Below, in pieces: positions 36,963-52,691 of a DNA stretch of 64,000 nucleotides; positions within the stretch are counted from its first letter, which is position 1, and every line of letters starts with the position of its first letter. Source of the stretch: Mobula hypostoma (Eukaryota); contig NC_086097.1 in assembly GCF_963921235.1 (NCBI RefSeq), forward strand, positions 60,576,001 through 60,640,000, read 5' to 3'. The notes under the pieces were generated by a model that did not search any database, had not been told where the DNA came from, and saw only the letters and a program-made list of their open reading frames with translations. The translations under genes and the position numbers were made by a program.

Positions 36963-37113
36963 GACAGATAATAATAATAATAATAACACTAATGTTGCAG
37001 CTATATAGGGCTCTGGTTTGACCCTACTTGGAGTACTGTGATCAGTTCCGATTGCCTCACTACAGGAAGGACGTGGAAACCATAGAAAGGGTGCAGAAGA
37101 GATTTACAAGGAT

Positions 37114-37327
37114 CACACATAAAAGTTGCTGGTGAACGCAGCAGGCCAGGCGGCATCTCTAGGAAGAGGTACAGTCGACGTTTCGGACCGAGACCCTTCG
37201 TCAGGACTAACTGAAAGAAGCACTAGTCAGAAATTTGAAAGTGGGAGGGGCAGGAGAGATCCGAAATGATAGGAGAAGACAGGAGGTTGAGGTTTGGATC
37301 CAAGAGCTGGACAGTTGATTGGCAAAA
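37114..37327 (-). mobile_element. Penelope-type pLTR fragment
   Basis: Matches the copies at 41.5, 41.9 and 52.2 kb and contains a hammerhead motif. Confidence 0.85.
37173..37208 (-). ncRNA. Minimal type I hammerhead ribozyme motif
   Basis: The minus strand reads AGUC CUGACGA AGGGUCUCGGUCC GAAA CGUC GACU: intact core, stem I AGUC/GACU, palindromic ACGU helix III. Confidence 0.75.
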
Positions 37328-41099: not shown

Positions 41100-41455
41100 T
41101 GCCAGAGGCCACTTTATTAGGTACACGGGTATACTTGTTTGTGAATGCAAATACCTATTCAGCTAATCATGTGGCAGCAATTCAATGTGTAAAAACATGC
41201 AGACATGGTCAAGAGGTCCATTTGTTGTTCAGACCAAACATCAGAATGGAGAAATACTGTGATCCAAGTGATTTTGACAGGAGAATGCTTGTTTGTGCCA
41301 AATGGGGTGGTTTGACTTATTCAGAAAACACTGATCTACTAGGATTCTCACACACAACAGTCTCTAAAGTTTACAGAGAATAGTTAAAAAAAACAAACAA
41401 AAAGACATCCAGTGAGTGACAGTTCTGTGAGCAAAAATGGCTTGTTAACGAGAGA
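41100..41455 (+). mobile_element. Tc1-like DNA transposon 5' fragment
   Basis: GGCCACTTTATTAGGTACAC end region and a paired-like HTH: CDPSDFDRRMLVCAKWGGLTYSENTDLLGFSHTTVSKVYRE. Confidence 0.8.
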
Positions 41456-41518
41456 GCAACACACATCAAAGTCGCTGGTGAACGCAGCAGGCCAGGCAGC
41501 ATCTCTAGGAAGAGGTAC

Positions 41519-41554
41519 AGTCGATGTTTCAGGCTGAGACCCTTCGTCAGGACT
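41519..41554 (-). ncRNA. Minimal hammerhead ribozyme motif
   Basis: AGUC CUGACGA AGGGUCUCAGCCU GAAA CAUC GACU; the helix III palindrome is broken by a CpG-type change. Confidence 0.65.
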
Positions 41555-41907
41555 AACTGAAGGAAGAGTTAGTAAGAGATTTGAAAGTGGGAGGGGGAGG
41601 GGGAGATCCAAAATGATAGGAGAAGACAGGAGGGAGAGGGATGGAGAGAGTCTGAGTCAAAATGTGGTCGAAAAGTTGAAGAGCTGAAGAAATTACAGAT
41701 GGGGAGCAGTGAGAGATGGTTTCACTGAACTCCCGTGGAAGAGAGGATTTAAACTTCTTTGGTATAGGCATCACCGGAAGAGATTTCGCAGTAGTGAATT
41801 TAAAAACGCAAACAACAGGAATTCTGCAGATGCTGGAAATTCAAGCAACGCACATCAAAGTTGCTGGTGAACGCAGCAGGCCAGGCAGCACCTCTAGGAA
41901 GAGGTAC

Positions 41908-41943
41908 GGTTGACGTTTCAGGCCGAGACCCTTCGTCAGGACT
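41908..41943 (-). ncRNA. Minimal hammerhead ribozyme motif
   Basis: AGUC CUGACGA AGGGUCUCGGCCU GAAA CGUC AACC; core intact, stem I weakened. Confidence 0.65.
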
Positions 41944-44807
41944 AACTGAAGGAAGAATTAGTAAGAGATTTGAAAGTGGGAGGGGGAGGGGGAGATCCAA
42001 AATGATAGGAGAAGACAGGAGGGGGAGGGATGGAGTGAGTCTGAGTCAAAATCCTGTCTTCTCCTATCATTTTGGATCTCCCCCTCCCCCTCCCACATTC
42101 AAATCTCTTAAGTATTGATTAAAGAAGGTAATACGATTGTTACTGAAATAAAGAAGGATGAGTTACTGACTCGGTCATTTGCTGCAATTCATAATCAAGA
42201 TAATTTAAGTGAAGAGGCTAAACAATGTAGGGGTAAGGTTCTAAATAAATATTCTGATGAGTTTGAAACCAGCTGAGTAATGATAGTATTAGTGATGTAG
42301 AGTTTTCTTTGTGTGAATTTAAGAAAGCTATTAATAGTACAGATGACTCCAGGAAGGGATGATATGTGTTATTGTATATTTAAACATACTGTATGGCCGG
42401 CAACTCTCTTAAGATAATATGAAGATTTTTAAATCATATTTGGAATTTAGGCCATCTTCCCTCCTCATGGAAAATGGCGGTAGTAGTGCCTATTCTAAAA
42501 CCTGGAAAAAAAATCCCGTTGGATCCTTCTAGTTATAGAACAATATCACTAATGTCCCGTTAGTGCTAACTTATGGGATGTATGGTAATAGAGCAGTTGA
42601 TTTATACTTTGGAAAAAAAGAGGTGATACAGCATTTTATCAGAGCGGATTTCAGAAGGATAGAATGACATTGGATTCAGTTTGGAAGATGATATTAGGAA
42701 AGCACGGGTAAATAAAGAAGTTGTAATAGAAGTATTTTTGATATAGTAAAAGTATATATGTTAAGGAGGGAGGGTATTTTAATTAAATTATGGAAATTAG
42801 GAGTGAGCAGAAGACTATATAATTTTTTGCTGAGTTTTTTATTTGGACAGTCTATGCAAGTAAGCGGGGGAAGGTATGCAGGTAAAGGTATATTCAGGCT
42901 TCTGTGAGATAGAAAATAGGACTCCACAAGGCACTATTTGTTCCCCTTTGTCGTTTAATATTATGATTAATGATGATTTCTCTGAGATTGCTATTGGGGT
43001 GGGTAAATCACTTTTTGCAGATGATGGAACTTTATGGATCAGAGGAAAAACATCCAATTTTACTGTATATAGGATGCAATTAGCAATTAATAAATTCGAA
43101 CAGTGGCCAGATAAATGAGATTCTAAGCTTTCAGTAGCTAAAATGCAAGTTATATATTTTACAAAGAGGATCAATAGACATGCACTTGATTTGAAATTAT
43201 ATAGTCAAACTCTTGAAGAAGAGACAGTGGTAAGATTTCTTGGCATGTGGCTGGATAATAAACTGACATGGAAGCATCATATCAGTAAGATAACTGACAA
43301 ATGTAAAGGGGCATTAAATATCCTTAAGTGTCTATGTGGGTATTCTTGGAGTGCTACTCGAAAATCTCTGTTACACATATATATTTGTTTAATTAAATCG
43401 GTACTGTACTATGGCTGTGTAGCTTATGGATCAGTGTCGTCTTCAAATTTAAAATGTTTGGATGTGATACAAGCACAGGCTTTAGGACTGTGTTGTGGTG
43501 CAGTAAGGTCATCTCCTGTTTCAGCTTTATTGGTTGAAATGGGATAATTACCCTTACAGTTGCAGAGGGTGAAGTTGTTGTTAACATACTGGGTTAACTT
43601 GAGGGGGCAGTGTGTTGGAAGACTTGGGAGCATCACAAGAAGAGTGTTTTTAGTTTTGGGTGGCTGGGTTCTCATCACGCTAGGATTATGGGTTTGTTGG
43701 ATTATTTACTTTGTCCCATTGTAGCTTTTTTGGTAACACCGCCGTGTTTTTTTCCCAATGGCTTTAATTCATTTTAGGTTGCATGTTTTAATGAAATCCA
43801 AGGACCCTGATATGCCTGAGTGTCTGTTGTTTCACCAGTATGTTGAGAAAAGATATTGCGATATGTTAACCATTTTTACTGATGGATCAAAAGATAATTT
43901 AACAGGGAATGTTGATGTGGCTGATTTTGTGCCTGAATTACAGGTACTAATAAAGAAACGTCTTACTAACTATTTATCAGTGTACACTGCAGAACTGGTT
44001 GCCATCATTCTAAGCTTACAGTGCGTGGAGGAAACCTATCCTTGCAAAGTTCTAATTTGTTCAGAACCTTTTCCTTTTTGAATAGTCTTAAAACAGGTCA
44101 TTCTAACAGTAGGTCAGATTTACTGCTAGAAGCTCTTCAAACTTTATTTCACATTCAAAATATTGGTCGACATTACTGCTTCGTATGGGTGCCCGCACAC
44201 AGAGGTGTTGAGGGAAATGAACTGGCTGATCGTTTGGCCAAAAAAGCTGTTAAAAGTTCACCTGTGGATATAGGCCTTCAATTTAGCAAATCAGAAGCTA
44301 AGGGGTCGGCGGGGCTGAGAATTAGGGGATTATGGCAGGACCTGTGGGATTCTGGGCACAAGGGGAGACCTCTTTACTGAATACACAAAACTGTTGGGTT
44401 GATGGGAGAAGGGGGTAAAACGAGAACGGAAGAAATTATATTGACTCAATTTAGAATTGGGAATACTAAGCTTAATTATTCCTTGTATCTTGCTGGAAAA
44501 CATCACTCTGGGGCATGTAGGTTTTGTCATCATTATGAAACAGTTGAACATATTCTTTTACAATGTGAAGCATTTAAGGTTGAAAGAGAGAAAATGCAGG
44601 CTGCATTGCTAGCTTTGTGAGTTGATGATCTTCATTTAAAAACTACTAAGTTATGGAAGTGACTTTAATTTAATTCACAATCTTGTCTTTTGTTATTTAA
44701 AATCTATAAGGCTTTAGGGTAATTTAGTTTTCAGTTGATAAAGAACTAATAGGAGTTCTATTTCTCAGCTCTCTACATCGCACTCTAGTCCAGTTGGTGG
44801 TGGTAAT

Positions 44808-45033
44808 TTAAACGCAAACAACAGGAATTCTGCAGATGCCGGAAATTCAAGCAACATACATCAAAGTTGCTGGTGAACGCAGCAGGCCAAGCAGCATCTG
44901 TAGGAAGAGGTGCAGTCGACGTTTCAGGCCGATCCAGTTAGTCCTGACGAAGCGTCTCGGCCTGAAACGTCGACTGCACCTCTTCCTACAGATGCTGCTT
45001 GGCCTGCTGCGTTCACCAGCAACTTTGATGTAT
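44808..45033. mobile_element. Inverted pLTR pair (Penelope-type) with 15-bp TSD
   Basis: 81-bp perfect arms 44852-44932 / 44957-45037; TSD GTTGGTGGTGGTAAT at 44793-44807 and 45034-45048. Confidence 0.9.
44940..44975 (+). ncRNA. Minimal hammerhead ribozyme motif
   Basis: AGUC CUGACGA AGCGUCUCGGCCU GAAA CGUC GACU; one substitution in stem II. Confidence 0.7.
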
Positions 45034-45254
45034 GTTGGTGGTGGTAATGCTCCTTTAAATTAGACTACCAACTGCCATTAAAGGTCAGAAGAGGACGGTC
45101 CCTTAATCTGCTTCGGCAATTATTGGGTCAATCTGGGGTGCCGAAATTGTCGCATATTCTGGCACCTGCAGTCAGGATGGTTAAGTCATGTAGGCCCTTG
45201 GTAAACTTTCAAATTAAAACTGGTTTGGGAGGCAGGATCTGATCCCTGTTATGG

Positions 45255-52075: not shown

Positions 52076-52197
52076 TTAGAGTATGCACTAGTTAAACAGA
52101 AACACGAGGAAATCTGCAGATGCTGGAATTTCAAGCAACACACATCAAAGTTGCTGTTGAATGCAGCAGGCCAGGCAGCATCTCTAGGAAGAGGTAC

Positions 52198-52233
52198 AGT
52201 CGACGTTTCAGGCCAAGACCCTTCATCAGGACT
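52198..52233 (-). ncRNA. Minimal hammerhead ribozyme motif
   Basis: AGUC CUGAUGA AGGGUCUUGGCCU GAAA CGUC GACU; core and stems intact. Confidence 0.75.
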
Positions 52234-52313
52234 AACTGAAAGAAGAGCTAGTAGGAGCTTTTTTACTGAAAGAAGAGCTAGTAAGAGCTTTTTTACTAGC
52301 TCTTCTTTCAGTT

Positions 52314-52349
52314 AGTCCTGACGAAGGGTCTCGGCTCGAAACGTCGACT
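52314..52349 (+). ncRNA. Minimal hammerhead ribozyme motif
   Basis: AGUC CUGACGA AGGGUCUCGGCUC GAAA CGUC GACU. Confidence 0.75.
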
Positions 52350-52691
52350 GTACCTCTTCCTAGAGATGCTGCTTGGCCTGCTGCGTACACCAGCAACTTT
52401 TATGTGTGTTACTAGTTAAACAGATTTTATTTCTTCTAATATTTTCCCACACGGCTAATTGTAAATAATGGATAGATGGAGGATATAAAAATGTAAATAA
52501 AAGCACAGCCTCATTTTCTTCAGATAATTAAATTTTAATAGAATTATTTCTCTAACTTGGCCGTCCTACATATAAATATATTCTACTGGAGACACATGTT
52601 GACATAAATTAAGGGCAATGAATGATTGCAAAATATAAACTCTGCATAGTTATTCAGTTTAAAATTGTGTTATAAAATGTAAATTGTGAAA

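Follow-up and report, generated by a model that had tools for sequence, protein, structure and literature searches.

Positions 41455–42110 of the window (the whole 64,000-nucleotide stretch of Mobula hypostoma NC_086097.1 analysed here) hold a tandem insertion built from parts of a Penelope-like element (PLE) on the minus strand. A 209-nt direct repeat (41455–41663 versus 41844–42052, 95% identity) recurs at a spacing of 389 bp, as a preliminary description of this DNA had reported, and it is followed by a 59-nt inverted arm (42052–42110) which is 98% complementary to both pLTR copies. Numbering is taken from the predicted hammerhead cut, +1 being 41911 in the upstream unit and 41522 in the downstream one. 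The features are as follows.

42053–42110, plus strand: inverted 5′ arm, pLTR about −109 to −51 on the opposite strand
42037–42052, minus strand: 16 nt of PLE ORF (+249 to +264) before the first joint, read as the start of a second copying round
42033–42037, minus strand: joint 1, ORF +264 to pLTR −125, with 3-nt microhomology
41844–42036, minus strand: upstream pLTR, −125 to +68
41908–41943, minus strand: hammerhead copy 1 (minimal type I), with cleavage predicted between 41912 and 41911
41809–41844, minus strand: ‘tail’ delimited by the family's two usual 3′ ends, at about +67 and +103, which are the likely internal RT start sites (PMC11167929)
41749–41802, minus strand: leader and ORF start (+110 to +163), whole in 109 of 112 anchored mini-sites
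41648–41771, minus strand: first 41 codons of the PLE ORF from the first ATG (+141), ending at +264
41644–41648, minus strand: joint 2, ORF +264 to pLTR −125, breakpoints identical to joint 1, with 3-nt microhomology
41455–41647, minus strand: downstream pLTR, −125 to +68, the first-copied end of the insertion
41519–41554, minus strand: hammerhead copy 2 (minimal type I), with cleavage predicted between 41523 and 41522

The array comprises only about 1.5 units, that is 1.04 units upstream of the last joint plus the pLTR ending at +68. The insertion path runs from +68 back through one full unit, continues for about 14–16 nt of a second round and then enters the inverted arm, which is likely a fold-back of the cDNA end. 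A 16-mer previously presented as the fusion does occur twice (41648–41663 and 42037–42052), but it is not itself the joint: it is uninterrupted ORF (H-I-L-T-Q-T, +249 to +264), found in long copies too, and the true joint lies at its edge, at 41648/41644 and 42037/42033. The 389-bp array is absent from the Tandem Repeats Finder list for the window, Rfam gave no match in the window at the gathering score, and no target-site duplication was seen at 41455–42110. In the 3′ flank (41176–41455, minus strand) lies a repeat, presumably ‘Tc1-like’, which is 73% like the flank of another mini-site, L096, the insertion being at nearly the same AT-rich spot. The inverted arm is adjoined by a 5′-truncated fragment on the plus strand (42111–44380), which we take to be LINE-like, with RT and RNase H-like motifs; the remainder of the arm was not found beyond this fragment.

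Longer copies of the family are organised as pLTR–ORF–pLTR, with 3.0–3.7 kb from hammerhead to hammerhead in 13 of the 16 copies examined. At locus L067, an open frame of 1043 aa contains DKGG, RT motifs and YIGET; its Pfam matches to RVT_1 (E 0.0025) and GIY-YIG (E 0.001) are both below the curated cut-offs; a PDB search with the parent ORF gave no match. The parent is an EN+ PLE of 3.5 kb, with a single ORF that combines RT with GIY-YIG at its C terminus between pLTRs, and with insertions showing the partial tandem, the inverted 5′ arm and a 30–40 nt tail. The linker CKRNKCYTC upstream of GIY-YIG is a CX2-5CxxC motif, which characterizes the RT-EN linker of Neptune and Nematis in PMC8557442. 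Neptune is likely the parent clade on the basis of this motif, common to Nematis, and Poseidon was rejected on the same motif. The open frame beginning at 41771 (MPIPKK...LFDH) matches the start region of the parent ORF, which bears out the earlier proposal about the extra sequence of the unit.

The resemblance to Neptune and Nematis, as far as the excerpts of PMC8557442 and PMC3846280 describe them, extends to pLTRs in direct and inverted order, a 30–40 nt tail, frequent 5′ truncation, target-site duplications at part of the direct-only mini-sites, though none at this locus, and an ORF with RT, CX2-5CxxC linker and C-terminal GIY-YIG. Unlike the insertions described there, the mini-unit lacks about 3.1 kb of the 3.5-kb monomer, its own joint is repeated within the insertion, and hundreds of different joints exist in the genome.

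The hammerhead announced for each repeat was recovered at both places; its core pattern has 6 matches in the 64-kb window and none in 100 shuffles. In its family form, the motif combines a helix I of 4 bp with an additional base ahead of helix II and the palindrome ACGU; it shows the core, helices I and II and the palindromic helix III of a minimal type I hammerhead that could pair as a dimer. It does not differ from the PLE pLTR hammerheads in the excerpts of PMC4209133, which share the CUGANGA...GAAA core, the extra base before helix II, the short helix I and the palindromic ACGU without loop 3, whereas each copy at the locus lacks one helix. Copy 1 has kept the core and ACGU, with two of its four helix I pairs broken; copy 2 has an intact helix I and a broken palindrome (ACAU). 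Both hammerheads are now damaged, in line with the decay that had been supposed for this copy. Short hammerhead folds are no better than those of shuffled sequences, so that folding energy is evidence neither way, and folding of the 389-nt monomer gave a z of −1.8 and no rod-like structure. Just upstream of the hammerhead (41540–41574, minus strand, and at the same place in the family), TACTAAC, presumably a branch point, a pyrimidine run and an AG resemble a 3′ splice site. The Drosophila Penelope intron ends at helix I, according to excerpts of PMC4209133.

To date the tandem, its two pLTRs were compared with 14 other copies from their subfamily. They carry 6 and 5 private changes and share none over 192 nt; unrelated copies of the subfamily show a mean of 6.1 changes from its consensus. 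Since no derived change is shared, the tandem dates from the insertion and not from a later DNA duplication. The template was thus copied for more than one round, the joint being carried by it or re-made at insertion, as had been anticipated, and both pLTR copies had intact hammerheads at that time. A local DNA duplication, the alternative raised in the preliminary description, is largely refuted here. A DNA route would combine an internal deletion in a partial-tandem PLE insertion with a subsequent local tandem duplication; microhomology-mediated internal PLE deletions are indeed reported in PMC3846280, and the long arrays L250 and L253, with their near-identical units, may have grown as DNA. 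This route is nevertheless highly improbable for the study locus. Besides the missing shared change and the near-average divergence of each pLTR, the 5′ end lies 16 nt into the ORF before the second joint, which unequal crossing-over between pLTRs cannot make, and deletions would leave native upstream sequence, present at only 2 of 230 mini-sites.

These mini-sites were collected from the 3.48-Gb genome. Anchor pairs that meet only across a large deletion gave 26, 180, 87 and 78 matches, and reversed controls none. The mapped set was drawn from among the matches listed, 80 of the 180-match pair lying outside it. Once poor alignments and joints beyond +440 or −400 had been dropped, 330 loci yielded 230 insertion sites, a lower bound in this anchor-selected sample. 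The at least 230 mapped mini-sites carry 200 distinct joints, of which 179 occur at one site each, and their units range from 134 to 561 nt. Among the best 40 matches to the ORF start, 12 were mapped as mini-sites, the study locus included. An inverted 5′ arm is found at 98 of the 230, target-site duplications at 62 of 132 direct-only sites (7 in the control), and two hammerhead motifs at 83, both intact at 34. Two pairs, L266/L267 and L277/L278, have common flanks and are thus duplications rather than independent insertions.

Where sites have a joint in common, they are often found on a single contig, separated by 9 kb to 7 Mb and set in unrelated flanks (L263/L264, L265/L266, L275/L276, L283/L284, L203/L205, L123/L124, L133/L134 and L156/L157); one RNA may have been used twice nearby, or these may be a local parent and its offspring. 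In the inverted insertion at L096 (1273–2040), which has a duplication of about 15 nt, the two arms share one joint but differ at 5 of 9 subfamily markers, through either two templates or later conversion.

The units have sharp limits. With the anchor at +110 (112 sites), only 3 left breaks fall in +124 to +162, against 40 in +163 to +201. The leader and ORF-start stretch (+110 to +163), in which the family form has a predicted hairpin around the AUG, is likely a protein-binding signal. On the other side (right anchor +20), re-entry coincides with the base of helix I (−33 to −31) at 16 of 60 sites, where 1.7 are expected. Re-entry breaks or loses the hammerhead at 12 of the 60, compared with 31.3 under uniform re-entry, and 9 of these 12 re-enter just after the cut. 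Helix I is a likely marker of many RNA 5′ ends, or of RT stops, at −32; the hammerhead cut may supply a minority of the 5′ ends. There are two clusters of 3′ ends, +65 to 72 and +100 to 108, and these tail ends are likely internal RT start sites. Two internal RT starts, and a need for RNA downstream of them, were found for one PLE, Anolis Poseidon PAc (PMC11167929), which likewise shows two 3′ ends 35–40 nt apart downstream of the hammerhead, and a further downstream stretch that is always kept, as in the mini-sites. Its mapped protein-binding limit lies at ORF +172. It belongs to a different clade, its AUG lies in the hammerhead and not 141 nt after the cut as here, and end-to-end multi-round copying is not reported for it in the main text of the same paper.

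The genome-wide view also bears on the idea, put forward in the preliminary description, that the two hammerheads cleave to release the 389-nt unit of a retrozyme family. The unit does measure 389 nt from cut to cut (41911–41523); such a family, however, is not supported, given the spread of unit lengths, the predominance of single-site joints and the position of the joint 125 nt upstream of the cut, which implies that the hammerhead did not make it. The genome search that had been suggested found the +264/−125 joint at four sites besides the study locus (L007, L063, L064 and L065). At strongly linked subfamily markers, L064 matches the study locus and the other three differ from it. As L007, L063 and L065 are on another subfamily haplotype, this joint must have originated two or more times; the study locus and L064 may be siblings. 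No longer array with the joint was found (8 matches at 5 sites, 2 mismatches allowed). Retrozymes are recognised by at least two consecutive tandem units, each with a complete hammerhead, and by a multi-copy family sharing one unit, whereas the locus has about 1.5 units with neither hammerhead intact, and 230 sites carry 200 joints. Compared with a retrozyme unit (about 150–400 nt, non-coding, GC <45%), the one here has 389 nt, no intact protein and 41 ORF codons.

A small retrozyme lineage can still be conceived: transcripts of a genomic mini-element with this joint would be cleaved by both hammerheads, and the resulting 389-nt monomer, once circularised (or else a multimer), would be put back into the genome by PLE protein. 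The five sites with one joint, L064 sharing the haplotype as well, would suit such a lineage, as would the near pairs with common joints, the 34 sites still holding two intact hammerheads, and the retention of hammerheads above uniform expectation; the subfamily hammerhead being intact, the two copies could also have paired as a dimer at insertion, judging from sequence. It appears distinctly unlikely, because 179 of the 200 joints are single, three of the four sharers belong to another subfamily, no longer array repeats the joint, the hammerhead is unnecessary for insertion in vitro (PMC11167929), and the first origin of hundreds of joints is left unexplained. A further point against it is an array of 151-nt units at L261/L330 (G000:C36:22144325-22145158), with 7 mapped joints and without hammerhead, in which the tail is preserved and so is the stretch from +110 to +163. 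Young arrays with hammerheads were also observed (L250, L253, L259, L264 and L269; 214–280 nt units, 3–5 joints), and these are the best candidates in the genome for true retrozymes.

The reading that we favour, with a probability of about 0.5, is that the locus is a decayed 1.5-round insertion of a PLE core (−125 to +264), made by RT jumping on a short linear RNA. From the anatomy, the parent element, the origin at insertion and a population with site-specific joints and sharp limits, all observed, we infer four copying steps. The PLE protein would recognise a short RNA by its signal at +110 to +163, bind it there and nick the target DNA; the RT would start internally at about +68 and run to the RNA 5′ end at −125; it would then clamp onto the 3′ end (+264) through 1–3 matching bases and go on copying, displacing its own first cDNA; at −125, a second jump to the same end would allow 16 nt to be copied before a fold-back gave the inverted arm. 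The hammerhead would be a passenger in this insertion.

One line of evidence is the behaviour of the sites at their own re-entry points. At 53 sites the copy returns to this point: 35 of them run through the joint once more, 19 end no more than 3 nt from it, and one site counts in both groups. These 19 ends (18 without L232, excluded from the stop test as a secondary deletion) compare with 37 over the adjoining 35 nt to either side (p 2.5e-7), and with a mean of 3.2 and a maximum of 13 in the shifted control; without L232 and the sites at −34 to −30, the figures are 14 versus 31 (p 3e-5). Many of these stops have clean target-site duplications. Together with the continuation into native sequence upstream of the re-entry point at only 2 of 230 sites, they indicate that the template ended, or was joined, at this point. 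All these tests are post hoc, the sample having been selected by anchors and the 5′ ends assigned from alignments, and the study locus itself does not stop at its own re-entry point.

The second possibility left by this result, a joined template, corresponds to a covalent circle: an RNA fragment from −125 to +264 would have been ligated end to end, without involvement of the hammerhead in the joint, and the RT would have rolled 1.5 times around it. Circular templates have been proposed for PLE tandems in the excerpts of PMC4209133, and the scarcity of native upstream sequence is equally accommodated. A further indication is the fidelity of the joints, since 26 of 31 direct multi-joint sites repeat the same one (21 exactly, 5 with 1–2 point changes judged by eye), with up to 7 joints in one array, and smaller units go with more rounds (Spearman −0.39). 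Such fidelity exceeds what independent jumps need, and it also fits a parent array. A seamless circle, in turn, gives no reason for 5′ stops at the joint (19 versus about 3–5 expected), although RT stalling at a covalent joint would likewise stop there. Nor does it account for microhomology, which averages 1.13 nt (0.81 ± 0.08 by chance), or for the G that precedes 57 of 191 joints (33 expected), an excess for which a cap-templated C is a speculative cause. It offers no reason either for the really different joints held by 5 of the 31 multi-joint sites: L304, for example, has two joints with the same ends, one with and one without an A-rich insert, and the two of L257 have a common left end and different re-entries. 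The covalent circle is on balance rather unlikely.

Some further features of the joints bear on linear jumping. In eleven hand-picked untemplated inserts, 32 of 42 bases are A, a count omitting three insert types (a templated one, an alignment artefact and L019). By analogy with the end-to-end template jumping described for the R2 RT in the excerpts of PMC8857657, PLE joints may arise in the same way. Against this, the microhomology excess is small, 76 of 191 joints having none at all, a shared source is possible for L064 on account of its common joint and haplotype, and the near pairs with unrelated flanks also fit parent and offspring. Template jumping and strand displacement by a PLE RT found no demonstration in the PLE literature compared. 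Back-splicing was rejected as the origin of the joints, none of the 103 tested fitting GT..AG. The circle, the spread from parent arrays and the jump may coexist.

Somewhat short of even odds, a more general proposal can be made: PLE RT would routinely copy short linear cores in a pseudo-rolling-circle manner, with the RNA held through its +110 to +163 stretch, jumping from a 5′ end, perhaps capped, to the 3′ end, and would thereby spawn hundreds of independent proto-retrozymes per genome without circular RNA. If so, this jump could also give rise to the partial tandems of pLTRs in full-length PLEs, the birth of ribozyme tandem repeats such as retrozymes would be explained, and nature would have provided, in this genome, a deletion scan of the cis-signals of PLEs. 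Any array holding two intact hammerheads would supply retrozymes with raw material; the study locus has lost both.

In the context of what is published, the insertion behaves as PLE partial tandems do, only with a shortened unit, and the locus is a variant of known PLE behaviour, now decayed debris. Deleted or nonautonomous PLEs are reported in excerpts of PMC3846280 and PMC8557442. Among the latter, nonautonomous Chlamys elements such as MRC1 are likewise short PLE derivatives with pLTRs in head-to-tail multimers, but they form stable families, whereas the joints of the mini-sites are mostly one-off. The derivation of retrozymes from PLE pLTRs is in print, in PMC7229834 and bioRxiv 10.64898/2026.07.22.740005. 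The animal non-LTR retrozymes of these two sources have a similar few-hundred-nt non-coding tandem unit, with a type I hammerhead in each, and the same pLTR origin, and they are presumably moved by PLE protein. The locus differs from them by its 1.5 units, its damaged minimal PLE-type hammerheads, its 41 ORF codons and the lack of a family unit, and it is known here from DNA alone; contigs of relatives from four runs of uncertain kind, not on record as RNA, carried no usable start, end or joint signal. The preprint's proposal is that retrozymes are born when an inserted pLTR is amplified locally; the tandem studied here formed at insertion instead. The literature search, with supplements and most subscription papers outside its scope, found no joint map and no linear end-to-end model for PLEs.

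The origin of PLE tandem and inverted ends, and of retrozymes from PLEs, is called open in PMC8557442, PMC11167929 and 10.64898/2026.07.22.740005. The value of the present population lies in its statistics, which make this mechanism testable. It predicts that units have a downstream limit near +163, that 5′ ends accumulate where helix I begins at its base, and that copying stops at the re-entry point of the site itself. These predictions could be tested in the existing in vitro PLE system and would separate a linear jump from a covalent circle.

Other pLTR insertions are present in the window. A separate palindromic one of the same family, with a 15-nt target-site duplication, occupies 44800–45050, and further fragments lie at 52094–52413 (palindromic with a duplicated centre), 37107–37327 (solo) and 1798–1931 (older, at 80%).
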